A stretch of 64,000 nucleotides of DNA from an uncultured virus (IMG/VR IMGVR_UViG_3300046008_001858) (Duplodnaviria; Heunggongvirae; Uroviricota; Caudoviricetes). Positions 12,567 to 58,642 of this stretch are shown here, one piece after another. A program made the translations under genes and the position numbers. Below the pieces are notes generated by a model, which saw nothing but the letters and a program-made list of their open reading frames with translations, was not told the origin of the DNA and made no database searches. Numbering within the stretch: the first letter of the stretch is position 1; each line of letters begins with the position of its first letter. Where the stretch lies: IMG/VR virus record IMGVR_UViG_3300046008_001858, one strand, 5' to 3'.

Positions 12567-12579
12567 GAAGGTAATAAGA

Positions 12580-13065
12580 ATGTTTAAATTCGTTTGCTCA
12601 GTACTATTTTTAGTATTAATTACAGGATGTAGCGGCACTGCCACTAATTTACCAGCAGGATATACACTTCCAGCAATGCCAGATGAAACACTTAATTCAG
12701 CAACACTTGTTGGAATCGATGCAAATACAAATGGCGTAAGGGACGATGTAGAAATTTTTATTTATACAAATTATTCAAAGCCAGAAGAACAAAAAGTTCA
12801 AATGCAAATGGCTAAAAATATTCAAGAACGATTTTATAATGTAAAATCAAAAGCAGACGGTCATATTTGGTTTGAAAAAATGGGAAATGCGCAAGACTGT
12901 CAAGAAAAAGTATTTGGAACAATTGAAGATGGTTTGAAAGAAAGTAAAATACTCTACAGTAAAACATTAAATACAATGAATAGAGTTGAAGCTGACCTAA
13001 GAATTAGATTATTAATGTCAGGAGAAGTTTTCCCTCTTATTCAAAATGAGAATCCATGCGAATAA
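12580..13065 (+). CDS. Lipoprotein (copy 2)
   Basis: Lipobox LITGC; GIDANTNGVRDDVE; overlaps next gene. Confidence 0.85.
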   Translation: MFKFVCSVLFLVLITGCSGTATNLPAGYTLPAMPDETLNSATLVGIDANTNGVRDDVEIFIYTNYSKPEEQKVQMQMAKNIQERFYNVKSKADGHIWFEKMGNAQDCQEKVFGTIEDGLKESKILYSKTLNTMNRVEADLRIRLLMSGEVFPLIQNENPCE

Positions 13066-14207
13066 TTTTATTTACACTTATTTTTTGTTTATCAATTTTT
13101 GCTAGTGATACAAAAATATTTCATATAAATGGAATTAATACAGAAGAAAATGAAGCTAGAGCAAATTTAACAAAATTAAAAAATACATTAAAAAGTAATT
13201 ATAAAGATCAAAACCTAACATATATATTAGCATATAATGAAACAGGAGTTGGTTTCGCTGATATAATAGATTGTTACAATCAAAAAGTTGCTGAATATAG
13301 AAGAGGAAATCTTCCATATAATATTAGTTTGGCTGAATTCATTTCTCAAGTAACTCTAGCTTTATTTCACCTACCTTCTTATGTAATGACACCAGCAGAA
13401 GTTGAACAATTTGAAATTAATAACATTATTAATAATACACAAAATTATACGTATACAGATACAGATTCTAAAAATATCGTGAAAACTATATCCGATAATG
13501 TTTTACTCGGTAATAATATTTTTATTATTGCGCATTCTCAAGGAACTCTTTATGCAAATATAATTTATGATAAATTAGTTGAACAGAATATTTCAAATAC
13601 AAATAACACAAAAATATTATCTGTAGCAGACGTTGCAGCTTATATGCCAAACGGCGATTGGTTATCTTCAGAAGGTGATCCAGTTATAATAGGAGTGAAA
13701 ATATTTTTTACTTGTATGGATTTCAATTATCTTAAGTTTAATAATTTAGGTCATTCATTAATAGATGTTTATTTAAAAGTAGGTTCAGAGTTATTAACTG
13801 AATTTGAAAGAAAAGCTAAATTACTATTAGAAACATTTGAACAAAAACAGTTTGATAACACATTTACATTCACATTTTATGGATTAGCTCCAGTTACTAC
13901 ACCAGGGATGAGCATGCCATTTATAAAAGATGTAAATAGAAGTAAGTCATATTACGAATGGAGTCCTGAATTTAATGTAAGCGTATCAGGAGCTGATAAA
14001 ATATATAAACTAACATTGCCTACAGATCAAGATTTAAGTGGCGAATACCTGCTTGAATGGACGTTTAGTGACGTTAATATAACTAAGGGACAAATTCAAT
14101 GTGGAAATAAAGTTAAAGACATAAATGTTACAAAATATTTAGTAAATAATTTTGGTAAAATAATATTAAGTAAATCAGGTAATAGTTATGATTGCAATTT
14201 TCAATAA
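13056..14207 (+). CDS. Secreted alpha/beta-hydrolase (lipase-like)
   Basis: Signal peptide, HINGI oxyanion-type motif, AHSQG nucleophile elbow, later D and GHS. Confidence 0.75.
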   Translation: MRIILFTLIFCLSIFASDTKIFHINGINTEENEARANLTKLKNTLKSNYKDQNLTYILAYNETGVGFADIIDCYNQKVAEYRRGNLPYNISLAEFISQVTLALFHLPSYVMTPAEVEQFEINNIINNTQNYTYTDTDSKNIVKTISDNVLLGNNIFIIAHSQGTLYANIIYDKLVEQNISNTNNTKILSVADVAAYMPNGDWLSSEGDPVIIGVKIFFTCMDFNYLKFNNLGHSLIDVYLKVGSELLTEFERKAKLLLETFEQKQFDNTFTFTFYGLAPVTTPGMSMPFIKDVNRSKSYYEWSPEFNVSVSGADKIYKLTLPTDQDLSGEYLLEWTFSDVNITKGQIQCGNKVKDINVTKYLVNNFGKIILSKSGNSYDCNFQ

Positions 14208-14884: not shown

Positions 14885-16423
14885 CTACGTATTTTTATTA
14901 AATAAATTATAATAAATTATACGAATAAAGTCTTTACTCAATCCTTTTTTTACATTGTATTCACAATAAAAGGAATCAAAATCTAAAAAACTTTCTCGAA
15001 GAACATCTTCGATTAATACATTTTTTATATTTTTTCCTGAACTCACATCTGCATTAATTTCGTATCCACAATTCATACATATAAATTTTTCTTGTGTCTT
15101 CCTATTATTTTTACTTACATAGTGACATTTATTACACTTTTGAGATGTATATTCAGCTGGAACAAAACTAACTGAAACACCACGATTATGTCCTTGACGA
15201 CGAATTCTATTTTTAATAGAATCTAAATTTAAAAATGTTGCTAATCTTCCGTAACTTATTTCTAATTCCTTATTATTTACACGTAATCTACTCCCAACTA
15301 TACTTAAATCTTCTAATGCTATATGATTTATATTTTCACTAATGCAATAAGTTATTATTTCTGATATCTTTTTATCTACTTCGTAGATTAATCTATTTCT
15401 ACTTTTTTGCTTTATTCTTTTCATAAACTCTGTTTCTTTTCTTTTATCTGCTTTTTTTATTATTTTTATTGCTGATTCTTTTATTTCTTTTTCTATATCG
15501 AATGTTTTTAAATTTGATAATGCAAATAAATTGTGTTTAATATTTATATCTACACCAACTTTGAAATCATTATTACTAAAGTCAAATAAATTTTCCTTAG
15601 TTGTCGTTAAATCTATTCTAAATGTATATTCATTTATAAATGTTATTGAATAAGATTTTACATAATCGGCTTTATGATATTTTACAGTTTTTACAGGTAT
15701 ATGTATTTTTTTAGTATTATATGCGCCTAAATTTATAAAGCTTCTTATACATGACTGATTATTTTTATTTCTTCCTATTATTTCTTGATTTACTCTGCTT
15801 TGTGTTGAAAATGTTAATGAATTATACTCTATTTTCTTAGCCCAATATCGTGTAAAAATTCTTTTCGTTCTATTTTCTACTAATTTAAATATTCTTTCTA
15901 ACTTTTTTTGATCCATATTTTTTATTAATTCTAAATAATGTCTATATATTGTTTTTATTTTTTCTATTTCTTTAGCACTAAATTTTGAATTACCTTTTTC
16001 TAGATTTAGCACATAATTTATATGAATTTCTGCTGAGTTCTTATCAATTATATGCTTCTTTAGCAAAAAGTTTGTTAAATTTGTAATTGCTGTCTGCTTT
16101 TTTATATATTTATTTTTACTTTTTTTTAGTATAAAAAACTTCTCTATACCTTTTGTCTTTATTTTATTTATATAATTTGTATATACAGTTTTAATTGCGT
16201 ATTCCATATCCTTATTTATTAATCCTGGAATCTTCATCTTCGTTTCTTGTTTTATTATTTCAAACATATCTGGCAATTCTTTGTTTTCTATCAGATATTT
16301 ATATATAATTTCACTAATATAGTTTCGATATATTCTTAGTGTTGCTGCTTTTTTCTTAACACTATTAAACTTCTTTTTGTTTAATTTATCGGTATAAAAA
16401 AATTTACTTACTATTTCGTTCAT
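14885..16423 (-). CDS. tnpB: RNA-guided endonuclease TnpB family (512 aa)
   Basis: RuvC-I VGVDINIK, RuvC-II ALEDL, YTSQKC..C/C..C zinc ribbon, RuvC-III NADV. Confidence 0.9.
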   Translation of the reverse strand: MNEIVSKFFYTDKLNKKKFNSVKKKAATLRIYRNYISEIIYKYLIENKELPDMFEIIKQETKMKIPGLINKDMEYAIKTVYTNYINKIKTKGIEKFFILKKSKNKYIKKQTAITNLTNFLLKKHIIDKNSAEIHINYVLNLEKGNSKFSAKEIEKIKTIYRHYLELIKNMDQKKLERIFKLVENRTKRIFTRYWAKKIEYNSLTFSTQSRVNQEIIGRNKNNQSCIRSFINLGAYNTKKIHIPVKTVKYHKADYVKSYSITFINEYTFRIDLTTTKENLFDFSNNDFKVGVDINIKHNLFALSNLKTFDIEKEIKESAIKIIKKADKRKETEFMKRIKQKSRNRLIYEVDKKISEIITYCISENINHIALEDLSIVGSRLRVNNKELEISYGRLATFLNLDSIKNRIRRQGHNRGVSVSFVPAEYTSQKCNKCHYVSKNNRKTQEKFICMNCGYEINADVSSGKNIKNVLIEDVLRESFLDFDSFYCEYNVKKGLSKDFIRIIYYNLFNKNT

Positions 16424-17686: not shown

Positions 17687-18421
17687 TTAATTTAAATTCT
17701 TTCTCGTTTGAAAATTTTTATTTTTCTGTCTTTCAAAAAAGTTTTTCATATAATTTTTTATTGTTTCTTTAATATTATCACTTTTCGAAAATGAATCTAT
17801 CCTTGTTAAAAAATGTTTATCAAAAGTTCTTGAACTTAAAAAAGAATGAAATGTTTTAAAAAAAATATCTTCTTTTAATTCAACTACTTTTTCAGTCTCT
17901 GTTATTTTAGAATTCCCAAAACAATATTGATTTTTACCTGAAATTAAAATGAAGAAATCCTTTAGAAATAATTGATCAAATTCTTTTGTTGAAAACATTA
18001 AATTAAGAAAATATATAAACTCTGGTTCAAAAGTATTTGAAAAATCATTAATAAATTCTTTTTCTATTTCATGTATTTTTAAATAAGACAATCTATAAAC
18101 TTCATTAAATAAATATGTAGCATGGATTATATAGTTATAATAAAATAAAGTTTCAGCTTCACCATATTTTAATAAATCTTGATCACATTCAAAATTATAT
18201 TTCAACGAAAGCTTAAAAAGAATTGACGCAAATTGCTTATTTCTAGGAATATTTACAATAACTTCTTCTTTTTCATATTCTCGAGGAATATCAAAAAAAG
18301 ATGGTAAGTCTTTAAGTAAAGGTCTTTGTTTTGGAAAGGAAGGCAATGCTTCAGAAATAGATAGAACTGTATTTCCATTTGTTGGAAAAAACGATTTTGA
18401 ATTTGTTGTAATAATAGTCAT
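17687..18421 (-). CDS. Hypothetical protein
   Basis: ORF with AAGGAG RBS. Confidence 0.75.
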   Translation of the reverse strand: MTIITTNSKSFFPTNGNTVLSISEALPSFPKQRPLLKDLPSFFDIPREYEKEEVIVNIPRNKQFASILFKLSLKYNFECDQDLLKYGEAETLFYYNYIIHATYLFNEVYRLSYLKIHEIEKEFINDFSNTFEPEFIYFLNLMFSTKEFDQLFLKDFFILISGKNQYCFGNSKITETEKVVELKEDIFFKTFHSFLSSRTFDKHFLTRIDSFSKSDNIKETIKNYMKNFFERQKNKNFQTRKNLN

Positions 18422-18564
18422 AATTGAACTCCTTAAATTTTTAAGTATTTGTTTTGGTTTGGCCAGAAATAGAATTTTAACAGAAATAAAGTTTTAAATC
18501 TTTAATTGCTTAAGTAGCTAAAAGTACGTTATTTCTATATTATGGTTTCTCCAAAAAGGAGAGA

Positions 18565-18819
18565 TTAATGCCAGTTGACAGATATTAAATTATCATCTGC
18601 AACTGCATTAATTTGGGCTTTAACTGATTCAACTGTTTCAGTTAAAACAAACTCAAGTTTATTTTCTTTGGCTGAAGATATTTCTTCGGCCATGTTACTT
18701 TTAACTTTTCTAAAAAAGCTTCTAATAACAACATTTTCAGTAAGAACATCGAAGTTAAATAAAACTCTAACTCCATATATTTCTTTCATTTCTGGAACAA
18801 TAATTAAATCGCACTCCAT
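18565..18819 (-). CDS. Hypothetical protein
   Basis: AAGGAG RBS. Confidence 0.7.
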   Translation of the reverse strand: MECDLIIVPEMKEIYGVRVLFNFDVLTENVVIRSFFRKVKSNMAEEISSAKENKLEFVLTETVESVKAQINAVADDNLISVNWH

Positions 18820-18957
18820 AATAAACTCCTTTTAAAAATAAAATTTAATTCGTTATAAGACAATTTATTTATATTTTAATCTATAATGAAAAGATTTAAA
18901 CTAATATAAAGGAATATTCAATTATAATATTATTAATTAAAACAGCAAGGATCTAAA

Positions 18958-19278
18958 ATGATATCAACACAATTAATGAGTGAAGTATTAGGATTAAAAA
19001 TATACTCTGTTAAACAAAAAAGTGATACTGTAATTGAATATACTTTCGATGCTATAGGCGAAACAAGAACTTCAACAATTAATATTTATGAGTTAGCTTA
19101 TAAATGTAAAGAATGGGCCAGAAATAAATATCACCAAAGAATTATGTCCGAAAGCGCTGGAAGTTGCTATATAATTGAAAGCGACGATAAATATTTTTAT
19201 CATGATTCTGAACATGAAAGTGTTTTTAAAGCATGTCAATATATTTTAGAGAATAAAAAAGCAGTTAAAAATGATTAG
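18958..19278 (+). CDS. Array paralogue 1 (MIS-INIYE-EAIF family)
   Basis: MISTQLMSEVL / INIYELAYKCKEWA / ESVFKACQYIL. Confidence 0.9.
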   Translation: MISTQLMSEVLGLKIYSVKQKSDTVIEYTFDAIGETRTSTINIYELAYKCKEWARNKYHQRIMSESAGSCYIIESDDKYFYHDSEHESVFKACQYILENKKAVKND

Positions 19279-19615
19279 TCAAAAATTACTTGCTGAAGTA
19301 TTTAATGAAAATATTTCTACAGACATAAAAATAAAGTATGCTGAAATTGACGGCGTAAAAATGGAATGGAAAGAAGTATGGTTTAACTTTAAAAATTACC
19401 CATTGGATTTTGTTGCTCATAAGTGCAAAGAGTGGGCATTAGATAATAATTTACTTGAATATAAAATTCTTTCTTATAGTGAAAATAAAAGGTTTGTATC
19501 TATAAAATATATTTTTAAAAATCATGTTATTGAAGATTTTGGAATATATAAAACCGATATAAATAAGAGTCTTTTCAAACTTTGTGAATATATTTTAGAT
19601 ACTAAGGATTTATAA
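19271..19615 (+). CDS. Array paralogue 2
   Basis: MISQKLLAEVF / VAHKCKEWA / SLFKLCEYIL. Confidence 0.9.
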   Translation: MISQKLLAEVFNENISTDIKIKYAEIDGVKMEWKEVWFNFKNYPLDFVAHKCKEWALDNNLLEYKILSYSENKRFVSIKYIFKNHVIEDFGIYKTDINKSLFKLCEYILDTKDL

Positions 19616-19998
19616 TGAATATTAGTAAAGAACTATTTACAGCCGTTACTGGAATTAACCTTGGAACTCAAGAATCATTTCGTGACCAATTTGAAGAAAA
19701 AGTTTGGGTTGGTACTGGAGAATATTCTAATACTATTTATTATGGTGTTCAAGGTATTAAAACAACACATATAAATATTTATGAATTTGCTAATAAATGT
19801 AAAAAATGGGCCTTTAAAAATGGTTTTTATTTACCAATTGTTTATACTGGAGAAAATACACATTGTGGTATCTCTAAAACAGAAAGAGGATATATTTGGG
19901 GCATGAAAAGTACATTTATAGAATTGTCAGAGCCTGAAGCAATATTTAAGGCATGTGAATATATACTTAGTGAAATGAAAGAGGCAAAAAATGATTAG
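19615..19998 (+). CDS. Array paralogue 3
   Basis: ISKELF / INIYEFANKCKKWA / EPEAIFKACEYIL. Confidence 0.9.
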   Translation: MNISKELFTAVTGINLGTQESFRDQFEEKVWVGTGEYSNTIYYGVQGIKTTHINIYEFANKCKKWAFKNGFYLPIVYTGENTHCGISKTERGYIWGMKSTFIELSEPEAIFKACEYILSEMKEAKND

Positions 19999-20527
19999 TC
20001 AAGAATTATTAAGTAAAATAATTACCGTAGATTGTTATGAGATTGGTATTTCAAGAAACATGTTGAAATATCAATTGGTAGAAGGATGTCGAACTGAGAT
20101 TAACATCTATGAACTTATTCATAAATGTAAAGAATGGGCGATTTCAAAAGATTATTCTCTTTTAAGTGGGTTTGACAAAGAAACTAACATGCCAACATGT
20201 TTTATAAATTTAGGTTATGGAATAACTGAATGTAATATGGATGTTTGGTGGGATGAGGAATTTACAGCATCTACTGAAGAAGAAGCTATTATAATGGCTT
20301 GTGAATATATTTTAAAAATGATTGATAAAAAGCTATTAAGTGAAGTCCTTGAATGGCAATGGGAAGAGAAATACGACGGTTCTAGTATGGTAGGATATTC
20401 AGATGCTTGGAGAAATTTTCAAAAATTATCAGATGAATATTTTACAGAAGAAGAAGCTAACAAGAAATTTTATCATAGAGAATGTCAAATGAGATCAATA
20501 AAAGAAACAGAAAGGATTAGAAAATGA
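19991..20527 (+). CDS. Array paralogue 4, fused to a second chimeric module from 20318
   Basis: Complete unit, then MIDKKLLSEVL followed by an unrelated EWQWEEK tail. Confidence 0.88.
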   Translation: MISQELLSKIITVDCYEIGISRNMLKYQLVEGCRTEINIYELIHKCKEWAISKDYSLLSGFDKETNMPTCFINLGYGITECNMDVWWDEEFTASTEEEAIIMACEYILKMIDKKLLSEVLEWQWEEKYDGSSMVGYSDAWRNFQKLSDEYFTEEEANKKFYHRECQMRSIKETERIRK

Positions 20528-20889
20528 TTAATAAAAAATTATTCGAAACTGTTATTGGGTTTGAAGTAGTTGAATTTGAACAAAATATCAATACAATACG
20601 ATATTATCCAGCTTCATATCCAAGGGCGAAATGTATTGATTGGAAACCTGATTTAATAAGTATTAATATTTATGAATTAGCGCACAAGTGTAAAGAATGG
20701 GCTAAAAATTTAGAGTATGATTTATATAGTTCTTGTAATGGAATTTGTGCCTTATCTTTTGGTGAATATAGAGGTGTTTGGAATAATTTTCCAACAGCAG
20801 AATTTTATGTTAAAGACAACGAATTAGAATCTATATTTGAAGCATGTGAATTTATTATAGATAATAAAAAAGGAGTAAAAAATGATTAG
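20524..20889 (+). CDS. Array paralogue 5
   Basis: Three conserved motifs present. Confidence 0.9.
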   Translation: MINKKLFETVIGFEVVEFEQNINTIRYYPASYPRAKCIDWKPDLISINIYELAHKCKEWAKNLEYDLYSSCNGICALSFGEYRGVWNNFPTAEFYVKDNELESIFEACEFIIDNKKGVKND

Positions 20890-21277
20890 TAATGAATTAT
20901 TAAGTGCAATATTAGGTAAAAATTGTATTGTCAATCAAATTATTGATACAAATATTCAATATCAAGCGTGGACAACAGTGTCAGAAGAAGACTCAAAAAG
21001 ATTTAATCCTCCATTAGAAAGTGGATATGAATTATTTGAACATATTAATATTTATGAACTTGCTCACAAGGCTAAACAATGGGCCTTGAATAATGGGTAT
21101 TTCTCAATAACAATGTTTAGAGCAGATGAATTATTTTCTTGTGATATTGGACCTACTTCTAGTGGCGAGTGGGATAGATGGGAAGAGTGCTTTATTGAAG
21201 AAACTGAAAATGAAGCTATTTTTAAAGCTTGTCAATTTATATTAGATGAACAAAAAGGACAGAACTTAAATGATTAG
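20882..21277 (+). CDS. Array paralogue 6
   Basis: Three conserved motifs present. Confidence 0.9.
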   Translation: MISNELLSAILGKNCIVNQIIDTNIQYQAWTTVSEEDSKRFNPPLESGYELFEHINIYELAHKAKQWALNNGYFSITMFRADELFSCDIGPTSSGEWDRWEECFIEETENEAIFKACQFILDEQKGQNLND

Positions 21278-21644
21278 TAAAAATTTATTTCAAGCTGTTA
21301 TATTAGATCCTCAAGAAAAAGATCTTGAGATGCATAATGATCCAGTAATAATTTATGGTCCATACAATTCTTTGGTTGTGTCATATAAATTTGGTTATAG
21401 AGGTTATTATCCAAAAGGATTTGATCAAACAATTAATATTTATGAATTAGCTCATAAATGTAAAGAATATGCAATGAATAATGACTATTGTTTAAATTCA
21501 TTTACAGATTATAATGGAACATGGTTTTCATATGCTAATAATGTAGGTAGCGCCAAACAATTTTCAGCAGAAACTGAATATGAAGCTATTTTTAAAGCCT
21601 GTCAATTTATATTAGATGAACAAAAAGGACTGGAAAATGAATAA
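21270..21644 (+). CDS. Array paralogue 7
   Basis: Three conserved motifs present. Confidence 0.9.
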   Translation: MISKNLFQAVILDPQEKDLEMHNDPVIIYGPYNSLVVSYKFGYRGYYPKGFDQTINIYELAHKCKEYAMNNDYCLNSFTDYNGTWFSYANNVGSAKQFSAETEYEAIFKACQFILDEQKGLENE

Positions 21645-21701
21645 TAAAACTAAATTTAAATTGCATTTAGGCTTTATTTGGAGCTATAAAAGGAATAAAC
21701 A

Positions 21702-22343
21702 ATGAAAGCATTAGAAATTGCTGAGCTTGAAGAAGAACTAAAAACTTTAAAATCAGATTTAGAAGAAACTAAATCAAGACATATATATCTAAAACATATC
21801 GAAGGAGAAGCAGAGTTGCTTCATAATCTTCTTGATAAAGCCAAAGAAGATTATAAATCTTTGGATCTTGATTATAGAAAGCAAGTTGATCTAGCAATGT
21901 CATTATCATATGAAATTGAAACACTAAAAACAACAGAGTTTAATAGAGGTGTAAAGGAATGTTTTGATTTTATAACTGGAATCGCTGCAAATACAGATGA
22001 TATTATTAAATCTACTATTATTCAAGATACAGCAGAATATATGCTTGAAACATTGTCGCCAACATTTCATATAAAATGGAAAGATATCTTAGAATTACAA
22101 AAACAATTAGAAGTAATGAAAACAAAATGTGAAGAAATAAACAAATTGAGACAAGTACCAAAAAACTGTGAATCTTGTAAATATAAAGTTATTGGTTCTG
22201 AAGAATGCAATAATATTTTAATGCAACAATCTTGGTTTTCTGAAACAGATGCAGATGTAGTTTATGAAACATTTAAAATACCATGCTCAGGGTTCTATTG
22301 TAGTCAACATGAAACAAAAAGTGAGGGGAATAAAAATGATTAG
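21702..22343 (+). CDS. Coiled-coil protein with C-terminal Cys cluster
   Basis: MKALEIAELE, KNCESCKY; related to 23069. Confidence 0.8.
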   Translation: MKALEIAELEEELKTLKSDLEETKSRHIYLKHIEGEAELLHNLLDKAKEDYKSLDLDYRKQVDLAMSLSYEIETLKTTEFNRGVKECFDFITGIAANTDDIIKSTIIQDTAEYMLETLSPTFHIKWKDILELQKQLEVMKTKCEEINKLRQVPKNCESCKYKVIGSEECNNILMQQSWFSETDADVVYETFKIPCSGFYCSQHETKSEGNKND

Positions 22344-22725
22344 TAAAGAATTGTTAAGCAAACTATTAAATAAAAAAGTAACAGAAGTAAGTACTTCAGA
22401 TCGAGAAGCAAGGGAACGAGGTTATCACACTATATCTGGTATTTTTATAATATTTGAAGATAATAGAGATGTTATGATTAATATCTATGAACTTGCTCAT
22501 AAGTGCAAAGAGTGGGCATTCATAAATGGATTTGTTCTATCAAGCTATAAACAATTTGAAGATGATAATGAACCAATTCATTGGATTTGTGAATGGTATT
22601 CTAATGAATCAAAAGTATGTTTTGAATGTTCTTCACATGAATATTCATGGAAAGAAGCTTCTTCAGAACCAGCAGCAATATTTAAAGCATGCCAATGGAT
22701 ATTGGATAATAAGGATAGTAAATGA
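22336..22725 (+). CDS. Array paralogue 8
   Basis: True start MISKELL at 22336 (GAGGGG RBS); three motifs. Confidence 0.9.
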   Translation: MISKELLSKLLNKKVTEVSTSDREARERGYHTISGIFIIFEDNRDVMINIYELAHKCKEWAFINGFVLSSYKQFEDDNEPIHWICEWYSNESKVCFECSSHEYSWKEASSEPAAIFKACQWILDNKDSK

Positions 22726-23066
22726 TTAGCAAAGAATTACTAGGTGAAGTTTTAAATCGCCCTATCAATGAAATTAACTACAAAAATGAAGGTGTATTTG
22801 CTACAACTATAAGATATTGGGAAACACCAAATCATCTAGCAATGCCTAATCTAATTAATATCTACGAACTTGCTCATAAATGTAAAGAATGGTCAATGAA
22901 ACATGATTATTCTTTAAATTCATTTTTAGATTATAACGGAGTTTGGTTCTCATATGCTAATAACGTAATAGCTGGAAATGCTAAGCAATTTACTGACGTT
23001 ACAGAATATGAAGCTATTTTTAAAGCTTGTCAATACATCTTAGACACTCTAACTGAATTGGAGTAA
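22722..23066 (+). CDS. Array paralogue 9
   Basis: Three conserved motifs present. Confidence 0.9.
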   Translation: MISKELLGEVLNRPINEINYKNEGVFATTIRYWETPNHLAMPNLINIYELAHKCKEWSMKHDYSLNSFLDYNGVWFSYANNVIAGNAKQFTDVTEYEAIFKACQYILDTLTELE

Positions 23067-23068
23067 GA

Positions 23069-23404
23069 ATGAACGCATTAATGAACGCATTAAAAATACT
23101 AAAACAAGTGTCTGCTAATAAGATTCCTACATTTTATACAACACAAGAATTTGTTACATATGTAAATGAAGTAAATGAAGCAATTGCAGAACTTGAAGAT
23201 TTAGAATTAAATTATAACAGACAAGTTAATTCAGCTAAGTTACAATCTTCTGAACTACAAGAACAGAAAACTTGTAATAAATGCATTTATGCTATTCATT
23301 GTGAAGAAACAGATGAATACAGCTACAATCATAAAGATCAAAACTGTAAAGACTGCTACAGAAGCGGATGGACAGATAACTACAATACAGGAGAACAAAA
23401 ATGA
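23069..23404 (+). CDS. Coiled-coil protein with Cys cluster
   Basis: AIAELEDLELNYNRQV, KTCNKCIY. Confidence 0.8.
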   Translation: MNALMNALKILKQVSANKIPTFYTTQEFVTYVNEVNEAIAELEDLELNYNRQVNSAKLQSSELQEQKTCNKCIYAIHCEETDEYSYNHKDQNCKDCYRSGWTDNYNTGEQK

Positions 23405-23865
23405 GAGAAATTAGAATGAGTGGTGAAGATATATCAGATCTTAAAAGTGGTGTTAAGTTTATATTAGAAAATCCTCAATATAATAAAGAAAATAAAACAA
23501 AAATCACACATATTAAGATTGATAAAAATATCTTAACAGCATATTCATTGCCTGATAGCGACTTTTTTAAAACGCATAAGGATTATAAAGATTTCGCATT
23601 AAGCTTTCCTATTTCAATCGATACATTTACGTCCATGGCCAGCGAATGGTTTGAAAGCGCTCAAATTCCTTTAGAAGTAGAAGAACCAGATAATGACGGG
23701 ACAACAAAAGAGGGTTTTATTTTAATATATGGAAAGGATTGGGGGTCTTTTGATTGGCAATGTGATTTTGGTCAAGATTCATATGGTAATGACAATACTG
23801 TTATTAAAATGGATAATATATATTCAATAATGATCATTAAAAATTATCAAGTCTATGGAAAATAA
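23401..23865 (+). CDS. Hypothetical protein
   Basis: AGGAG RBS, coupled to previous gene. Confidence 0.8.
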   Translation: MREIRMSGEDISDLKSGVKFILENPQYNKENKTKITHIKIDKNILTAYSLPDSDFFKTHKDYKDFALSFPISIDTFTSMASEWFESAQIPLEVEEPDNDGTTKEGFILIYGKDWGSFDWQCDFGQDSYGNDNTVIKMDNIYSIMIIKNYQVYGK

Positions 23866-23982
23866 TTTAAATATTTTTTAATTTTAAATAAAGTAAATTT
23901 TAGTTAAAATTATATAAACAAAAAACATGAGCCTGAAAGGCATCGTAGATGGGTGCCAAGTGCAGCGAAGGGGAATTTTAAA

Positions 23983-24360
23983 ATGATTTCAATAGAATTA
24001 TTAGGTGAAGTACTAGGTAAAAGAGTAATTGAAATAATTAAAGATCAAAGTAATATACAAATATTACCTGTTGTGGTAATCGAAGTATTTGAGCGAAGAG
24101 GTTTGAACTTAGCAAGAGAAGAGGAACATTGTTTCAACATCTACGAACTTGCTCATAAATGTAAAGAATGGGCTAATAAAAAAGGATATATTTTATCTTC
24201 AACATTACATAATAATCAAGGATATTGTGAAATAAAAAAAGAAACACCTGAGAGAATTAAATCAATTGCTTGGTGTCCAATGGATTTCAATACAGAAGTT
24301 GAAGCTATTTTTAGTGCTTGCCAATATATTCTTGATAATCAATCAAAAGTTGAGGAATAA
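23983..24360 (+). CDS. Array paralogue 10
   Basis: True start MISIELLGEVL; three motifs. Confidence 0.9.
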   Translation: MISIELLGEVLGKRVIEIIKDQSNIQILPVVVIEVFERRGLNLAREEEHCFNIYELAHKCKEWANKKGYILSSTLHNNQGYCEIKKETPERIKSIAWCPMDFNTEVEAIFSACQYILDNQSKVEE

Positions 24361-24365
24361 ATCAA

Positions 24366-24698
24366 ATGAATGGTGTAAATAGACTAACTGATTTAATAAA
24401 TGATTGTTTACTTGAACCTTATGTTCATAATCAAATTTCTGCGGCAATAGAAGAAATTCAAAAACAGTTAGTAGAACATAGCAAGATTGCTGAGCGTACA
24501 TTATCTATTGGGGCAGACGAGGGTTGGTTTGAATGGAAAGATGAGAGTGACGGTGCTTATATTTCGTTACATAAAGATCTAGAAAAAATTAGAGATTTGA
24601 AAGAAGTGCAAGATTATATAAGACTTCAAAATATGTATATTGATTCATTAAAATTAAAAATTACAGATTTAAGTGAACACGAAAGGAATAAAAAATGA
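24366..24698 (+). CDS. Hypothetical protein
   Basis: GAGGA RBS, in operon. Confidence 0.75.
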   Translation: MNGVNRLTDLINDCLLEPYVHNQISAAIEEIQKQLVEHSKIAERTLSIGADEGWFEWKDESDGAYISLHKDLEKIRDLKEVQDYIRLQNMYIDSLKLKITDLSEHERNKK

Positions 24699-25027
24699 TT
24701 AGTCAAGATCTTCTTAGTGAAATATTAAATGTAGATTGTTACGAGGTTGGTGTTTCAAAAAATATATTTACGTATCAATTAGTAAAAGGATGTAAAAGCG
24801 AAATTAATATTTATGAACTTGTTCATAAATGCAAAGAATGGGCCATGAGTAAAGGATTTATAGTTCTTACATATGGTGAAGCTTATTACAATGTAGATGT
24901 CCATTACCATAGTAATAAATCAAAATTTGGCAATTTAGCTTTTAGTGACACTGCACAAGAAGAACCTGAAGCAATGTTTAAAGGTTGTCAATATATTCTA
25001 GATCAAATTAAAGTATTAAAAATTTAA
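24695..25027 (+). CDS. Array paralogue 11
   Basis: Three conserved motifs present. Confidence 0.9.
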   Translation: MISQDLLSEILNVDCYEVGVSKNIFTYQLVKGCKSEINIYELVHKCKEWAMSKGFIVLTYGEAYYNVDVHYHSNKSKFGNLAFSDTAQEEPEAMFKGCQYILDQIKVLKI

Positions 25028-25042
25028 ATTAAGGGGAAAACA

Positions 25043-25486
25043 ATGATAACTAAAGAACTATTTGAATTAATTACAGGAATTTTTGTTGATCCAACAAAAA
25101 AGTTTAAACCAAAAATAAAAAATAACATTTTAAAAATAAGTGTTGTTACAGAATGGTTTACAGAGAAAGATATCGGCGAAGAAATTGATCAAGAAGAATA
25201 TAATGAAATGATTGAAGAATACGGAGTTGCCTGGGCCGTTTGTGAAGTAAAATCTTTTAACATGTATGAATTAGTTCATAAATGCAAAGTATTCGCTGAA
25301 GCTAAAGGTTGGGGCACTAAAATGGCATATTTCAATGACGTTTGTTCAACTGTAACTTTATTTGATATCTATTGGTCTCCGTCAAAAAAGAAAGAATATA
25401 CATTTGAAGACGAAGATGAAGTTGAGGCCATGTTTAAAGCGTGTCAATGGATTATAAATACAAATAACGCTGCAAGAGACATATAA
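25043..25486 (+). CDS. Array paralogue 12
   Basis: MITKELF / NMYELVHKCK / EAMFKACQWII. Confidence 0.9.
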   Translation: MITKELFELITGIFVDPTKKFKPKIKNNILKISVVTEWFTEKDIGEEIDQEEYNEMIEEYGVAWAVCEVKSFNMYELVHKCKVFAEAKGWGTKMAYFNDVCSTVTLFDIYWSPSKKKEYTFEDEDEVEAMFKACQWIINTNNAARDI

Positions 25487-25508
25487 AACAAAAAAAGGAT
25501 GGATTAAA

Positions 25509-25895
25509 ATGTTAATTATAGATTTAGAATTAGAAACTTATAAAGAAAAATATGAATTTATCACTAAGAGCCTTTGTTCTCTTGATAGAAATAAAGGTAT
25601 TGGAATTTATCTTGTTCCAAAAGTAGATATTATTTATACAAATGAAAAGATAAAATATGAAGAAGATTTTGAAGCAATTGACGATTGTATTAATGCTATT
25701 AAAAATTTCGCAATTGAAGATTTATATTATGTTTCTGCATATGAAGCTGAAAACTTTTTTATCTTAAAAAATAAAACATATCAAAAAGTTTCAAAAATTG
25801 AAGATGCAAGAGATTTTATGTATAAAACAGTATCTTTTGATTTAAGTAATTTTGATACGAAAGATTGTGTATTAATTTTTGATTTAAATCATTAA
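25509..25895 (+). CDS. Hypothetical protein
   Basis: ORF with RBS. Confidence 0.75.
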   Translation: MLIIDLELETYKEKYEFITKSLCSLDRNKGIGIYLVPKVDIIYTNEKIKYEEDFEAIDDCINAIKNFAIEDLYYVSAYEAENFFILKNKTYQKVSKIEDARDFMYKTVSFDLSNFDTKDCVLIFDLNH

Positions 25896-25916
25896 TTTCC
25901 CTTTAGAGGGATATAG

Positions 25917-26269
25917 TTTTAATTAAAAAACTATATCTAAGATGCTGCAAAATTTACTCCTAAAAAGGAGTATATTCTTCTTTAGCTATTGAATATGGAT
26001 CTATATCCCCATAATTTTTAACTATAAATTCTAAAGGTATTTTTTTATTTGAAGCCCAGTAACAAAAGTAATTACTTGTTATTAACCCAACTCTCTGTAT
26101 CTTATCAAACTTTGAATTTTCTTTATTTTCCGTTTCAATAAAATCTAAGAATTCATCCGTCAATAGAATAATATCTCCATGATTTACATTGATCTTTATT
26201 CCTGAATTTAGTGTAATTTCCATTACATATCCTTTTTAATTAAAAAACTATATCTAAGATGCTGCAAAA
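25917..26269. repeat. Perfect 36-bp direct repeat (25917..25952, 26234..26269) flanking one small gene
   Basis: TTTTAATTAAAAAACTATATCTAAGATGCTGCAAAA twice. Confidence 0.9.
25960..26223 (-). CDS. Hypothetical protein
   Basis: AAGGA RBS. Confidence 0.7.
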   Translation of the reverse strand: MEITLNSGIKINVNHGDIILLTDEFLDFIETENKENSKFDKIQRVGLITSNYFCYWASNKKIPLEFIVKNYGDIDPYSIAKEEYTPF

Positions 26270-26707
26270 ACAACAAACATCTTTTTTGTGAATCAAATCA
26301 ACACCATAAGTAACATCTAGCGTATCTGTATCATTAATGATAATGTAGCTGTCAGTTCCAATAATTCCTTGACTTAAAATATCTCCGAGTTTGAAAATAA
26401 CTGATTTTCCTAGTGGTAAATTAACTATTTCAATAAATGAATAATCAGGTCTTTGACCTAACTCAAAAATTGTTTTATCTAAAATACTACTTTCAGCAGA
26501 TTTTTCAGAAAAATAGATATTTTCTTCCTTAATATTATTAAATTTATAAATATCATCTACTTCAAGACTATATTTATTATTCTTAAACATACGATCTAAC
26601 CCAAGAGTTACATTCATAACTTTGCCTTTTAAAACTTCGTTATTACTAACAAAGAAAACTTCTGAGCCTATATTAATATAGCGCAATGCTGTTTTTTCAA
26701 AATTCAT
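26240..26707 (-). CDS. Hypothetical protein
   Basis: Coupled to paralogue 13. Confidence 0.75.
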   Translation of the reverse strand: MNFEKTALRYINIGSEVFFVSNNEVLKGKVMNVTLGLDRMFKNNKYSLEVDDIYKFNNIKEENIYFSEKSAESSILDKTIFELGQRPDYSFIEIVNLPLGKSVIFKLGDILSQGIIGTDSYIIINDTDTLDVTYGVDLIHKKDVCCFCSILDIVF

Positions 26708-27117
26708 TTTGTTTCCTTATTATCTAAAATCCATTGACAAGCTTTAAATATTGCTTCTGGCTCTGTATCACATATAAATTCATTAGTTAATGTATTTGCT
26801 GGATTACCAGTATAAACATACCCTATTGCTTCCCAATCGTCTGTATAATCTGATTGATTATCTGATAATGATATTTTTTTCCATGATCTATGGTTTTTTG
26901 AAACAATCATTCCATTATTTTTGTAAGCCCATTCTTTACACTTATGAGCAAACTCATAAATATTTATTTCATTGTGTTCAGACATTCTATCCCAACAAAT
27001 ATAACTTGTTGATTGAGTATCATCTATCCAAAGTCTTTCTTCTGTTAAAATATCTCCACAATAATATGTACCAATTTTAACTCCCATTACAGAACTAAAT
27101 AATTCTTTCGTAATCAT
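26704..27117 (-). CDS. Array paralogue 13 (opposite strand)
   Basis: MITKELF / INIYEFAHKCKEWA / TEPEAIFKACQWIL. Confidence 0.9.
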   Translation of the reverse strand: MITKELFSSVMGVKIGTYYCGDILTEERLWIDDTQSTSYICWDRMSEHNEINIYEFAHKCKEWAYKNNGMIVSKNHRSWKKISLSDNQSDYTDDWEAIGYVYTGNPANTLTNEFICDTEPEAIFKACQWILDNKETK

Positions 27118-27127
27118 CTCAAAGCCT

Positions 27128-27427
27128 TTACTTAAACATATTTTTAAAAGCTGTTAATAAAGAACAACCTTTTTGATCAGCAAAACTTTTTTGTTTTGCA
27201 CCAACATTTACTTTATACCAATCAGGCATAGCACTCAAAACAGTAACTTCACCACTTTTTAATGAATCAAAATCTTTTGAATCAATAATTAAATCTCGTG
27301 AAAAAGCATGATTACTACAAATAATAGTTTCTTTGCAATAAAATGTATTCAAAACATTCTTTTTATCGAGAACAATCTCAATAACCTCAATAACACCTTC
27401 AAACCCTTTAATGGATAAAGTCTCCAT
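27128..27427 (-). CDS. Hypothetical protein
   Basis: AAGGAG RBS. Confidence 0.7.
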   Translation of the reverse strand: METLSIKGFEGVIEVIEIVLDKKNVLNTFYCKETIICSNHAFSRDLIIDSKDFDSLKSGEVTVLSAMPDWYKVNVGAKQKSFADQKGCSLLTAFKNMFK

Positions 27428-27566
27428 AATAACTCCTTTTAAATAATTTCATTAACTGAAATATAATTTGTTATATTGCCCAACAATGATAATTTAAAAG
27501 ATATTTATTTTCAGCTAGTATTAATTAAATACTAGCTATTATTATATAAAATAAGAGGGTATTCAA

Positions 27567-27950
27567 ATGGAAATCAAACTAGAAGTAGCAAATATCAAAG
27601 ATTTTTTAAGTGTTTTAGAAAATTTTATGAATGAAAAAAGTATAAATAAAGATCAACTAAAAATTGATAATAAATCAATTGAATCATTTAAAGCAACAAT
27701 TGCAAAAGAATATTCAACTGAAGAAATAATTCAAATGAATTCAAAAATATTTTTATCAGAAGCTTGTGTTAAAAAATTAGATATGTATTACTGCGGCTGG
27801 GAATGTGATATTGAATCTTGGATTTTAGAAGATGGAAGAATGTTTACGACAAATCATGGAAGTATTTCTGAATTTAGAAAAGAAGATTTTGATTTGTATA
27901 AAAAAGGAATAATTGATTATGCAGAATCTTTAAAAAATATTGTATATTAA
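27567..27950 (+). CDS. Hypothetical protein
   Basis: GAGGG RBS. Confidence 0.75.
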   Translation: MEIKLEVANIKDFLSVLENFMNEKSINKDQLKIDNKSIESFKATIAKEYSTEEIIQMNSKIFLSEACVKKLDMYYCGWECDIESWILEDGRMFTTNHGSISEFRKEDFDLYKKGIIDYAESLKNIVY

Positions 27951-27971
27951 TTAAACAAAAAAGGATTATTC

Positions 27972-28538
27972 ATGAAATTTTTAAAAACAATCTATAATGA
28001 TAGACTTAATATAGCACACATGACTAAGTTTAGTGTAAAAAAAGGTGATTTTGATATAGAAAAATTATATTGTTGTTGTTCTAACGGTAGCGAGTATACT
28101 TGTTTTAATTTTGATCAAGGTATAAATATAAATTATGATAAATTTATTACATTTATTTTTGAAGAAATAGAAAAGAGTTCAGAAACAATTTTTTGTATAA
28201 AAGAGTTGTTTCGTAATTATATTCAAGAAACAGAATATGCTGCTTATTCAGAAATAGATTCTTTTATTGATACAATAGTTGTACAGACATATAAATTAAA
28301 GGATCAAAAAGATGTTAGAATTAATAAACTTATTAATGAATATATACCAACTTTAAAGTCTCAATTTCTTATAATGAGTGAAAATGAACGTGAAATACAA
28401 TATCCTTCATTTATATCTATTTTAGAGGAATCTAAAAAAGAAATTGAATTAAAAATTGAAGAAGAATCTAAAGAAACGTCGCATTTATTTTCTAGACAAA
28501 TTTCAATTATTCAAAGTATTGTATTTCAAAAAAAATGA
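27972..28538 (+). CDS. Hypothetical protein
   Basis: AAGGA RBS. Confidence 0.75.
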   Translation: MKFLKTIYNDRLNIAHMTKFSVKKGDFDIEKLYCCCSNGSEYTCFNFDQGININYDKFITFIFEEIEKSSETIFCIKELFRNYIQETEYAAYSEIDSFIDTIVVQTYKLKDQKDVRINKLINEYIPTLKSQFLIMSENEREIQYPSFISILEESKKEIELKIEEESKETSHLFSRQISIIQSIVFQKK

Positions 28539-31452: not shown

Positions 31453-32874
31453 TTAATCTCGAAAATAATCATTAAAATAAGGATTACCATCTAAGAATTC
31501 AGCCAACCTATAGTGGCGTGGATCATCCTTATTATTTAAATAAGGATGGCGTAGCGAAAAATTAGAAGTAAATAAATAAAGTCTAATCTTCAGTACAGTT
31601 TTTCGATTTAGAAACACATTCGAACTCTCACACGAACTTCGTGCATAAATAATTCTCGAAGCGTTTATGTCTGCGTTGAGTTTTAAGCCACAACACAGAC
31701 ATAAAAACTTACTCTGCTTCCTTCTATTCTCTTTATCTATATAACTACAAGATGAGCATTCTTGAGATGTGTATGCAGGATTTATTTCTAAACATATAAT
31801 TCCATATTCTTCAGTCAATCGTTTAAATTTATCATTAATTACTTTTTTACCGTAATTTGATAATATTCTATTCATTCTTTTTGATAGTTTTGGTGATTGA
31901 AAATTTAAACGCTCAATAACTATTTCTCTTGGACTTTCTTTTTCTACTAATTGATTTAATACACGATTTACTTCATTTTTTATATAACTTTTTAATTTAT
32001 TTACTAATTTATCATAACGTTTTGATCTTACTTTCAAGCCTTGTTTCTGACGATTTTTTGCTATTTTAACTATTATTTTATCCATTTTCTCTATTGGTTC
32101 TTTAAAATTTCTTCCATACAAATTCCCTGTACTGCTTGCGAATAAATTATTTAATCCAAAATCTAAACCAATTTTATCTACTTTACTAATATATTTTAGT
32201 CTTTGCTCATCGATACTTAATTTTTTATAATCTTTTTCTTCCTTTATAAAGCATACACTCAAATTATTGTCACTATCAATATTTATTTGACTAAATCTCT
32301 TTTGTATTCCTTTTCCTTCTTCGTAATATCCATTACTTACTATCGGTATTAATATTGGTTTTCCAGCTTCTAATGTTGATAACTTTATCCAGTAATCATA
32401 TTTACCTTGAACACTATCTGCTATTTTTGCAACTTTCTCATCGAGATTCATATTAATTTTACTAAGATTTGGCTTTCTTTTTATTAAATGTTTCATTATT
32501 TTTCTATATAGTTTTTGTGTTTCTTCAGGAAATTTAGTTTTATCATAACTACGATTAATTTGATAAAGTTCTTTTCTTCGTTCATCTGATAATTTTGATT
32601 TTGTTATTGTATCTCTGAATTCATTTTTCTTGTTTGAATAATAACTTTCTAACAACCCTACAACTTGGTATTGACAAGTTTGTAAATATCGTGCTGATAG
32701 TTTTGAAGAGATATTTATTTTTGATTGTTTATTGAATTTATTTGTTAAATTAAAATTGTGCCACTGTGCTTTTGCTAATTTTTTTGCTGCTTTTCTATAC
32801 TCTTTTAATACAGCTTTTACTTTTGCTGTTTTATTTTTATTTTCTTCTGATTTTATCTTATATGTCTTTATCAT
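31453..32874 (-). CDS. tnpB: RNA-guided endonuclease TnpB family (473 aa)
   Basis: RuvC-I IGLDFGL, RuvC-II VIERL, YTSQECSSC/CLCC zinc ribbon, RuvC-III NADINAS. Confidence 0.92.
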   Translation of the reverse strand: MIKTYKIKSEENKNKTAKVKAVLKEYRKAAKKLAKAQWHNFNLTNKFNKQSKINISSKLSARYLQTCQYQVVGLLESYYSNKKNEFRDTITKSKLSDERRKELYQINRSYDKTKFPEETQKLYRKIMKHLIKRKPNLSKINMNLDEKVAKIADSVQGKYDYWIKLSTLEAGKPILIPIVSNGYYEEGKGIQKRFSQINIDSDNNLSVCFIKEEKDYKKLSIDEQRLKYISKVDKIGLDFGLNNLFASSTGNLYGRNFKEPIEKMDKIIVKIAKNRQKQGLKVRSKRYDKLVNKLKSYIKNEVNRVLNQLVEKESPREIVIERLNFQSPKLSKRMNRILSNYGKKVINDKFKRLTEEYGIICLEINPAYTSQECSSCSYIDKENRRKQSKFLCLCCGLKLNADINASRIIYARSSCESSNVFLNRKTVLKIRLYLFTSNFSLRHPYLNNKDDPRHYRLAEFLDGNPYFNDYFRD

Positions 32875-32909: not shown

Positions 32910-33535
32910 CACTTTTTTATGTAATGTTTTTCATATTTCCCTTCGCTAAGCTCGGCCATACAGGCTACATGTTTTTTCATAATTCTTCATGATCGTTGAA
33001 TAATACCTCACGTCTTTGTAGAGATTCTGATCAATTCTTTTCAATTTATACTTTTGTAGTATGTAACAGCGGAATGAAAGCACAAATTGCAGGACCTATT
33101 TTTAATCGTATAATTGATTGTTTAAATAATGGTGGAGATATTTCTTCTGTATTTGGACATAAATTAAAAGTTAAAGCGATTAAAGAAGTTTTAGCTAATA
33201 GACATGAGTTATTTGCTTCGTTCTGTGAAACACAATTTGAAGATACAAATGCTATCCTCGATTTTTGTGAAAGTCTTCCCCATATTGGTGGAATAACTAA
33301 ATATCATCTAGCAAAAGATTTAGGATGCGATGTTGCAAAGCCAGATCGTCATTTAGTTAGAATATCCGCTAAATATGATATGACAACAGAAGAACTTTGT
33401 GAAAAACTTTCGAATGAAACTGGAGATAGTATTGCAGCTGTTGATTTTATTTTATGGCGAGCAGCTAATTTAGGAATTTTATAAAAATTTTATAAAAATA
33501 AGATATAATTTTAAAAATTAGAAAAGGAGTTATTT

Positions 33536-54567: not shown

Positions 54568-54638
54568 AAGTTCTTTTTTAATTTTATTTTAAATTTATTC
54601 TGATAAAATAACATAATTAAAATAAAAAGAGAGAATCC

Positions 54639-57574: not shown

Positions 57575-57585
57575 AAGGATAAAAA

Positions 57586-57762: not shown

Positions 57763-57873
57763 TATATAACTATATAATTTTGTTATTGGAACAAAAGATT
57801 TTAAAGGTGTCTTTAAGACTTTACTTGCTAATTTTATAGCTAAAAGTCCACTTAGTGGCGAAAGGATTTTGAA

Positions 57874-58161: not shown

Positions 58162-58189
58162 AAATCCACAAAGTGGTGAAAGGTTTATT

Positions 58190-58642
58190 ATGAAATTCGA
58201 ATTTGAAGTAAGCAGAACTTACGTATTTAAAGGAACTGTTTGCGTTGAAGCTGATTCAGAAGAAGAAGCAAAAGAAAAAGCATTTGATATGATTGGTGAT
58301 ACTAATCTATCTATTAGTTATGCTATTGACGGTGAAGACCGTGTTGAAGGTGATAATTATGGTGAATTTTTACAATCAGTTGATATTGATCAACTTAATA
58401 TAAAAATTTTAAGAGAATGGGCAGAATCTTATGGATATCTATTGCCATCTCATAAAAATACTGCTTTTGAAAAAGATAAATATAATTGTTATCTAAAAAC
58501 AAAAACTATGTCAGAAGATAAATGTGTTAAAGCATTTGTCTATAATACTGAATTTGAAGCCATTGAAGCAGCATGTAAATGGCTATTCAATACTTACAAA
58601 AAAATTACAACTTATCCTGTGTTAATTGAAAAAGGAGTTTAA
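58190..58642 (+). CDS. Hypothetical protein; C-terminal half resembles array family
   Basis: VEADSEEEAKEKA N-domain; LREWAESYGY...TEFEAIEAACKWLF. Confidence 0.8.
   Translation: MKFEFEVSRTYVFKGTVCVEADSEEEAKEKAFDMIGDTNLSISYAIDGEDRVEGDNYGEFLQSVDIDQLNIKILREWAESYGYLLPSHKNTAFEKDKYNCYLKTKTMSEDKCVKAFVYNTEFEAIEAACKWLFNTYKKITTYPVLIEKGV

Follow-up and report, generated by a model that had tools for sequence, protein, structure and literature searches.

What does a run of 13 divergent copies of one small gene do, and is it a device by which those copies are reshuffled? The question is raised by the IMG/VR virus record IMGVR_UViG_3300046008_001858, a stretch of 64,000 nucleotides (nt; the window, whose positions are used for all coordinates below). 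It carries 13 intact paralogues, 12 on the plus strand (18958-25486) and one on the minus strand (26704-27117), each named here by its start (e.g., g19991). The initial annotation described them as a constant scaffold with combinatorially shuffled variable segments, and as a candidate for an undescribed system. Our analysis makes it somewhat more probable than otherwise that the locus, a nin-like operon plus a convergent copy, holds 13 old, diverged paralogues of a mostly phage-borne family, and that their products would be acidic, dimeric binders in phage-host conflict.

Segment exchange across the family and within the array

As initially described, and as the paralogue alignment confirms, each protein consists of three constant (C) and two variable (V) segments in the order C1 (MISKELL..), V1, C2 (INIYELAHKCKEWA), V2 and C3 (EPEAIFKACQYIL). 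In a 128-sequence alignment of the wider family (A2), K55 is invariant (g22722 numbering) and 21 further columns are at least 90% conserved, all of them within the three constant segments; the conserved residues include H52, K53, C54, K55 and C103. V1 measures 20-101 amino acids (aa) and V2 30-75 aa among 245 members (selection given below). The 13 paralogues are all acidic, with isoelectric points (pI) of 4.3-6.1 and net charges of -1.3 to -14.3, and the family as a whole has a median pI of 5.2, with 75% below 6.

The family is uncurated, very large and mostly phage-borne. It comprises 2486 representatives (50% identity) at E≤1e-3 and 1448 at E≤1e-10; a 90%-identity collection gave 2437 matches, and those listed are all "hypothetical" and without Pfam domains. 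No Pfam, PHROG, NCBIfam or PADLOC model matches the family. Sequence searches of the PDB returned one chance match (E 0.45) with a first alignment (A1) and none at E≤10 with A2, a megablast search of plasmids with positions 18000-28000 returned no match, and a tblastn search of phages returned one, a hypothetical protein of Thiohalocapsa phage LS06-2018-MD03. Of 62 viral loci with the family in IMG/VR, 49 have one copy, 12 have two and 1 has four, counted within the stretch examined per locus. A phage-like contig filed under a Campylobacterales metagenome-assembled genome (L001) has 7 interspersed copies (that genome gave 10 matches), and in a sample of 184 genomes of one bacterial family, only 5 carry a match, a single one apiece. 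Of all the sets surveyed, the 13-gene array is the largest. In nine annotated viral loci the family gene lies among phage replication or early genes: between O/DnaD, DnaB and RusA in three of them (L005, L008 and L024), and adjoining an N4-type RNA polymerase, DNA polymerase or primase in two (L013 and L051); a NAMPT neighbor also occurs in annotated loci.

To follow the variable segments through the family, sequences were cut at the constant motifs, which succeeded for 236 of the 295 collected; four duplicates of window genes were dropped, leaving 232, and the 13 window copies brought the set to 245. Among these members, which outside the window are cluster representatives (50% or 90% identity) in which close pairs sharing both V segments are collapsed, at least one V segment is common to 198 pairs. 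Of these, V1 is at least 50% and V2 at most 25% identical in 35, the reverse holds for 39, and both segments are at least 50% identical in 20. Random pairs have a median V identity of 18-21% and a 95th percentile of 28-30%. Three sequences (P0033, P0212 and P0189) combine one V1 with three different V2 segments, one of which is also carried by P0167 (the same V2 as in P0033), and further cases of V exchange are the pairs P0040/P0181 and P0062/P0154. In two phage contigs (L023 and L030), the upstream region, C1, V1 and C2 match at ~96% identity, a stretch of ~130 nt in V2 is unrelated, and from C3 on the two are nearly identical once more. At the level of sequence it is clear that whole V1 or V2 segments have been replaced between otherwise near-identical phage genes, with breakpoints in DNA coding for constant helices. 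Exchange of whole β segments at constant helices is the pattern expected under diversifying selection for binding specificity.

Most V segments are unalignable, their identity being at the random level (18-21%), and within the array pairs were tested segment by segment. Of the 78 paralogue pairs, one shares V1, one shares V2 and none shares both (Z≥5); the other V segments are unique, and differ by wholesale replacement and length rather than by point changes. The V1 pair is g19991/g24695 (Z 20.5, 152 nt at 79.6%), whose V2 segments are only weakly similar (Z 3.5-3.8). The V2 pair is g21270/g22722, in which C2, V2 and C3 match over 192 nt at 78.6% (V2 Z 20.8) and V1 does not (Z -0.4). The neighbors g20882 and g21270 share a recent tract of 62 nt at C3 (96.8% identity). 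All three resemblances had been pointed out beforehand and are borne out here; a fourth, the "looser" V1 likeness of g19615 and g26704, is not supported, with a Z of 1.5 and equally high scores in 9.5% of 1000 shuffles. Finally, V2 of g24695 is 86% identical over 37 aa to that of a metagenomic protein (P0191) whose V1 is different.

At identical residues, the share of identical codons compared with the expectation from codon usage is 0.61 versus 0.48 in C1, 0.61 versus 0.66 in C2 and 0.63 versus 0.64 in C3. Since C2 and C3 are at expectation, general homogenization is absent and the paralogues are old. In three other metagenomes (X2, X3 and X4), contig pieces are colinear with the region at 0-1 differences; these contigs may come from the same population as the window, and contigs conceal rare variants. 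The 21 cluster genes (18958-27427) and the 27 larger open reading frames (ORFs) of the window, together referred to below as the scanned ORFs, yielded no reverse transcriptase, invertase or integrase. Contig joints were set aside because the shorter side of each spans just 21-35 nt of repeated C2 sequence; joints with sides of 21-23 nt often stem from repeats or other organisms. One opposite-strand joint (21466/26964, in contigs of X2 and X3) connects C2 of g21270 on the plus strand to C2 of g26704 on the minus strand with shorter sides of 30-35 nt. It may reflect how the repeat is resolved in the assembly graph, or else an infrequent inversion between paralogues on opposite strands. Taken together, "combinatorially shuffled" describes the family and not the array, where sharing is limited to one of 78 pairs for each variable segment; likewise, the idea of a recombination-diversified repertoire stands for V exchange at constant segments, mainly among phage relatives, and falls for active shuffling within the array.

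Fold, predicted dimer and possible roles

AlphaFold, run with the alignment of the 13 paralogues, predicted an α-βββ-α-βββ-α arrangement (H-EEE-H-EEE-H; predicted local distance difference test (pLDDT) 86.4, predicted template-modeling score 0.78). An exhaustive VIA-align comparison over 48,161 chains ranked 1r7l_B first and as the sole chain with Z≥8 (Z 8.0, root-mean-square deviation (rmsd) 2.8, 86 of 109 residues aligned over model residues 1-100, 13% identity); 4pup_A is another full-length match (Z 5.2). Model residues 42-106 also align to double-stranded RNA-binding domains (dsRBDs; Z 5-6.4, rmsd 2.0-3.4, 50-65 aligned), and the C-terminal half aligns to HPF/RaiA hibernation factors (Z 5-6.3). 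Best Z values of 7-8 are common even for models without relatives, and these matches are therefore evidence of fold class only. The structural neighbors in the ESM Atlas include clusters with PF18066 in 32-41% of members or with NinX (template-modeling score (TM) 0.58-0.65), and the feature neighbors are 75-92% viral. The ABA-sandwich-like fold proposed in the initial annotation is in this sense upheld: the comparisons support a predicted α-βββ-α-βββ-α fold of the class of the ABA-sandwich protein 1r7l and perhaps of P22 NinX.

A homodimer prediction for g22722 gave an ipSAE of 0.74, compared with 0.00 for the best control; among 30 proteins solved as one-chain pairs, 20 reach the ipSAE mark, and among 23 solved as single chains, 1 does. 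Agreement between runs was at least 91% of contacts, with a partner pLDDT of at least 88. The predicted symmetric interface comprises helix 2 positions 46, 48, 49, 51, 52, 55, 56 and 58, positions 59 and 62, strand β4 (64-71) and E95/96. Its helix-2 face is formed by N46, Y48, E49, H52, K55 and E56, with K55 paired with E95. The helix-2 interface positions and E95 are retained in 10-13 of the 13 paralogues, and strand β4 is variable among them. Helix 2 is conserved on both faces, probably because one would face the core and the other the dimer partner. In addition, natural tandem fusions of two complete family domains exist (P0001, P0002, P0018 and P0151; 230-278 aa). They would fit a dimeric unit, and would be covalent versions of the predicted dimer.

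Taking into account the phage early-region context, the hypervariability bounded by conserved segments, the acidity and the predicted dimer, a binder role in conflict is suggested. The proteins would work as dimers that bind other proteins, as inhibitors or adaptors, in conflicts between phage and host or between phages; in these dimers, the constant helices would serve fold and dimerization and the variable sheets target specificity. The cassette-swap alleles, the predicted dimer interface and the natural 13-member panel provide a testable handle on this proposal; if the targets turn out to be proteins of defense or host takeover, this family would offer specific inhibitors from a large new source.

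Several points weigh against this interpretation. The family has no characterized homologue, and 1r7l, 4pup and NinX are themselves without known function. Foldseek searches of the PDB and BFVD returned nothing at E≤1e-3, a Z of 8 is within the range reached by unrelated models, and the dimer is a prediction only. The number of pairs similar in both V segments is deflated because the sets are cluster representatives, and some chimeras could have been generated at the conserved C2 during metagenome assembly. In g22722 and g23983, C2 is a point at which Logan contigs break, so that the window's V1-C2-V2 linkages depend on the original assembly. Furthermore, the scanned ORFs include no phage structural or integration gene, and the replicon looks cellular.

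A host-side alternative, which we consider unlikely, is that the array is a domesticated repertoire of decoys that heterodimerize through the helix-2 interface with the homologue of an infecting phage, as a dominant-negative defense. In its favor, the helix-2 interface residues are kept in most or all paralogues and across the family, the window lacks phage structural genes and has type I restriction-modification, Sir2 and PARP genes near the array, and elsewhere the family is carried by phages, with few occurrences among sampled bacterial genomes (5 of 184). However, strand β4 of the predicted interface varies among the paralogues, no PADLOC model matches any cluster gene, and the seven copies on the phage-like contig L001 place multi-copy sets on the phage side too.

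It is quite improbable that the array is a poly-immunity locus, in which immunity proteins against polymorphic toxins stand in tandem as in SUKH- or Imm-type arrays. Tandem arrays of small divergent paralogues are typical of immunity genes, and the paralogues are small, acidic and divergent on a constant scaffold, but the scanned ORFs contain no toxin, Rhs, contact-dependent inhibition (CDI) or secretion-system domain, no immunity family is matched in Pfam or NCBIfam, and most family members are single among phage genes, with replication or early neighbors in the nine annotated loci.

We give equally little credence to nucleic-acid or ribosome binding, with the C-terminal α-βββ-α half as a dsRBD-like or hibernation-factor-like module. 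The alignments of residues 42-106 to dsRBDs and HPF/RaiA and the conserved K53/K55 pair in helix 2 would be in agreement with it; against this, all 13 paralogues are acidic (as is the family, with pI below 6 in 75%), K55 is paired with E95 in the predicted dimer interface, neither dsrm nor any other RNA-binding Pfam model matches at E≤0.1, and the Z values are in the range of common arrangements.

Lastly, a programmed device (a diversity-generating retroelement (DGR), shufflon or gene conversion) that actively reshuffles V cassettes in the array is highly improbable: two mosaic pairs, one near-identical 62-nt tract between neighbors, the inverted copy g26704, which could in principle support inversions, and the 21466/26964 joint in two runs (sides only 30-35 nt) are offset by shared halves that are only ~79% identical, same-codon shares at expectation in C2 and C3, scanned ORFs without reverse transcriptase, invertase or integrase, and colinear contig pieces in three metagenomes, the remaining joints having sides of 21-23 nt. 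The array would thus not be a currently active shuffling device.

Gene layout of the array and its surroundings

A profile of the 13 paralogues, searched against all six-frame ORFs of the window, recovers them at the coordinates first reported with E values of 2.7e-22 to 1.9e-37; the next-best matches are 58190-58642 (E 1.3e-5) and one at E 0.57. The plus-strand unit (18958-25895) has 17 genes, of which 12 are paralogues, and 10 of its 16 junctions overlap, with three further gaps of at most 15 nt. The overlaps are 8 nt at five junctions, 4 nt at four and 1 nt at one; those of 8 nt arise because a TAG stop falls within ATGATTAG. The sequence AAATGATTAG was found 7 times, each at the start of a family gene, in keeping with the recurrent coupling junction that the initial annotation had noted. 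For two paralogues the family-consistent starts are 22336 and 23983, the longer ORFs starting at 22264 and 23953. The genes are as follows.

18958..19278, plus strand: paralogue 1, 106 aa; first gene of the plus-strand cluster, after a 138-nt AT-rich gap; sequence used for folding
19271..19615, plus strand: paralogue 2, 114 aa; most divergent copy (E 2.7e-22), with YPLDFVAHKCKEWA as C2 and predicted interface positions 46, 49 and 95 altered
19615..19998, plus strand: paralogue 3, 127 aa; identified by profile and alignment
19991..20527, plus strand: paralogue 4, 178 aa; full copy at aa 1-113, with a decayed copy (aa 114-178) fused to it in frame
20524..20889, plus strand: paralogue 5, 121 aa; V2 weakly like those of g21270 and g22722 (Z 4.3-4.9)
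20882..21277, plus strand: paralogue 6, 131 aa; shares the 62-nt C3 tract (96.8%) with g21270
21270..21644, plus strand: paralogue 7, 124 aa; shares C2, V2 and C3 with g22722, V1 not
21702..22343, plus strand: interspersed non-family gene, 213 aa, without family match; stop within the ATGATTAG start of paralogue 8
22336..22725, plus strand: paralogue 8, 129 aa; family-consistent start
22722..23066, plus strand: paralogue 9, 114 aa; reference for residue numbering, alignment A2 and the homodimer prediction
23069..23865, plus strand: two interspersed non-family genes, 111 aa and 154 aa, without significant family match
23983..24360, plus strand: paralogue 10, 125 aa; family-consistent start
24366..24698, plus strand: interspersed non-family gene, 110 aa
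24695..25027, plus strand: paralogue 11, 110 aa; three-way mosaic, with V1 like g19991 and V2 like the metagenomic protein P0191
25043..25486, plus strand: paralogue 12, 147 aa; V1 of 59 aa
25509..25972, plus strand: last plus-strand gene, 128 aa, non-family, then two terminator-like hairpins (25898-25911 and 25955-25972)
26704-27117, minus strand: paralogue 13, 137 aa; convergent, with a 4-nt overlap with the downstream non-family gene 26240-26707 (155 aa)
58190..58642, plus strand: distant 14th member, 150 aa; E 1.3e-5, profile positions 40-113

The array may have arisen by tandem duplication of a start-to-start unit, as the conserved ATGATTAG junctions and KND tails suggest, followed by long divergence and few segmental exchanges. 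In g19991, the decayed copy retains a C1-like stub (IDKKLLSEVLE) and gives a second profile match, with profile positions 1-25 at aa 114-138. The plus-strand transcription unit likely ends at the hairpins after its last gene, and paralogue 13 belongs to a convergent four-gene cluster. A promoter scan was uninformative in this AT-rich DNA (80 found versus 66.5 expected). Contigs from RNA libraries cover 26230-26398 and 26698-27171, which is not proof of transcription because such libraries can contain DNA. The non-family genes of the cluster have no relative in the 66 loci compared. In the distant member at 58190-58642, C2-V2-C3 alone is recognizable and the N-terminal part is unrelated; it sits in a second cluster of small plus-strand ORFans (57167-59542).

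The window is AT-rich (GC 21-32%), has no tRNA and carries a type I restriction-modification system, a chemoreceptor, a GGDEF-EAL protein, two TnpB-like genes, two subtilases, a Sir2 and a PARP-like gene; the stretch occurs in public runs of lake-water and freshwater metagenomes. In 301 Campylobacterota genomes, identity to a GGDEF-EAL protein did not exceed 50%, which did not place the host. The two TnpB/Cas12f-like genes (14885-16423 and 31453-32874, both on the minus strand, 27% identical over 207 aa) flank a ~15-kb stretch of small ORFans that contains the array, and just past the second of them a 162-aa protein (32996-33484) matches the PADLOC model "OGG" (E 2.4e-29). The Sir2-family gene (37427-38218, minus strand) lies ~0.7 kb from the bacterial PARP-like gene (38949-40217, plus strand; WGR, PARP regulatory and PARP catalytic domains); the two might form an NAD-linked conflict system, and no PADLOC model matches either gene. 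Other paralogue sets in the window are two ORFans of 353 and 356 aa (52.5% identical, 5707-7825), a 228-aa protein that matches the C-terminal part of a 383-aa protein at 77% identity (8644-9330 and 13056-14207), two ORFans of 161 and 178 aa (72.5% identical, 11991-13065), the two subtilases (68% identical, 52546-56723) and three glycine-rich-domain proteins (42957-44018, 47932-49017 and 60027-61190).

Comparison with NinX and other known systems

Three known classes of system do not accommodate the array. Membership among the dsRBDs fails, as that topology is present in the C-terminal half alone, no dsrm match was obtained and 13 of 13 paralogues are acidic; membership among DGRs or shufflons fails for lack of a reverse transcriptase or invertase in the scanned ORFs, and membership among toxin-immunity arrays for lack of a toxin, Rhs, CDI or secretion domain in the same ORFs.

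A functional precedent is T7 Gp1.2 (PDB 7u65_G), an inhibitor of the E. coli dGTPase and thus a small phage early protein that blocks a host enzyme. Its fold is partially alike (Z 6.2, rmsd 2.9, 65 of 83 residues aligned, model residues 22-103), but many dsRBD and HPF chains tie with it in Z, the sequences are unrelated, and the match does not span the whole protein; we regard it as only an example of the proposed kind of role.

The best full-length structural match is the Bacillus cereus phage protein 1r7l, presumably the founding structure of PF18066, with a three-layer α/β/α fold. The paralogues and the family samples have no match to the PF18066 model, and a PF18066 search of two genomes (G001 and G090) gave sub-threshold matches only, in unrelated long ORFs. 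Our literature search found no paper on PF18066, and "ABA sandwich" together with phage returned only unrelated work.

The closest counterpart is NinX (PF10765, formerly DUF2591). The ninX gene of P22 (locus L086:8249-8587) matches PF10765 at 4e-31 (108 bits). An alignment of 56 NinX homologues (A6) has the constant segments MDYSKLSDFEINK, FDPCNNPADAWPII and NPLRAAMIVFLMMQ enclosing V1 and V2, and one V2 type is paired with at least five V1 types. The patterns used could cut 59 of 120 NinX sequences (P0220-P0339); among the 1711 pairs of these, 151 have V1 at least 70% and V2 at most 25% identical, 187 show the reverse and 36 share both. In our literature search we found neither a description of cassette mosaicism in NinX nor a functional study of the protein.

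Parts of one published account (PMC8022706) state that the functions of nin genes are largely unknown, that ninX is among the more divergent nin genes of phages L and P22 (70.9% DNA identity), and that lambdoid nin regions are exceptionally tightly packed, with ATGA overlaps.

The two families differ in their constant motifs, which are MISKELL, INIYELAHKCKEWA and EPEAIFKACQWIL here and MDYSKLSDFEINK, FDPCNNPADAWPII and NPLRAAMIVFLMMQ in NinX, and to our knowledge NinX is a single gene per phage, with no arrays. PF10765 and PF18066 match none of the 13 paralogues (E≤0.1) or of 34 representatives (E≤0.01), and both are absent from the 25 families listed at E≤1 for the 128 members (a list that leaves out 31 further families with a single member). 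Comparison of A2 by hhalign gave a probability of 0.13% (E 0.44) against the 56 NinX sequences and of 0.04% against P22 NinX alone. The family is built like NinX, but as hhalign finds no sequence relation it cannot be classed as part of it.

The likeness in build extends over several levels. Both families have proteins of similar size (about 110-130 aa) and the same five-part plan, with constant N-terminal, middle and C-terminal helices around V1 and V2, and in both the V segments reassort. Tight, overlapping gene packing is common to both, and so is, for family members in viral loci, a genomic setting flanked by replication genes on one side and by RusA or Q on the other, as in lambdoid-type phages. 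Set against the P22 map, the members in L005, L008 and L024 have this position; the window itself does not, with no phage replication or late genes in its scanned ORFs. The NinX model (pLDDT 81; V2 poorly resolved, pLDDT <50) has 4pup_A (8.1) and 1r7l_B (5.9) as its only matches at Z≥5 among the 48,161 chains. Both models match 1r7l_B and 4pup_A over their full length, and the order of their helices agrees; in the NinX model the strands of V2 are unresolved. One NinX cluster of the ESM Atlas has a TM of 0.60. The locus is in this light less an undescribed system than part of a large uncurated family whose architecture and cassette behavior are mirrored by a named one: the picture of a constant scaffold with exchangeable V cassettes is right for the family and for NinX, and marginally visible inside the array.

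Many phages carry NinX-type small proteins in their accessory early regions; the uncurated family analyzed here, with more than 2,400 clusters, has the same five-part architecture and appears to belong to the same fold class. It is possible, if rather doubtful, that this family, NinX and the ABA-sandwich proteins represent one widespread phage "cassette scaffold", a dimer in which the helices would provide the fold and the landing pads for recombination, and β cassettes would be swapped to retarget the protein. On that proposal, the shared helix-2 interface would allow as many as 91 homo- and heterodimers, which would differ in the variable faces that they pair, the 13-gene operon would be a co-expressed repertoire, and the scaffold that it has in common with NinX would be an undescribed modular specificity system for phage-host conflict.

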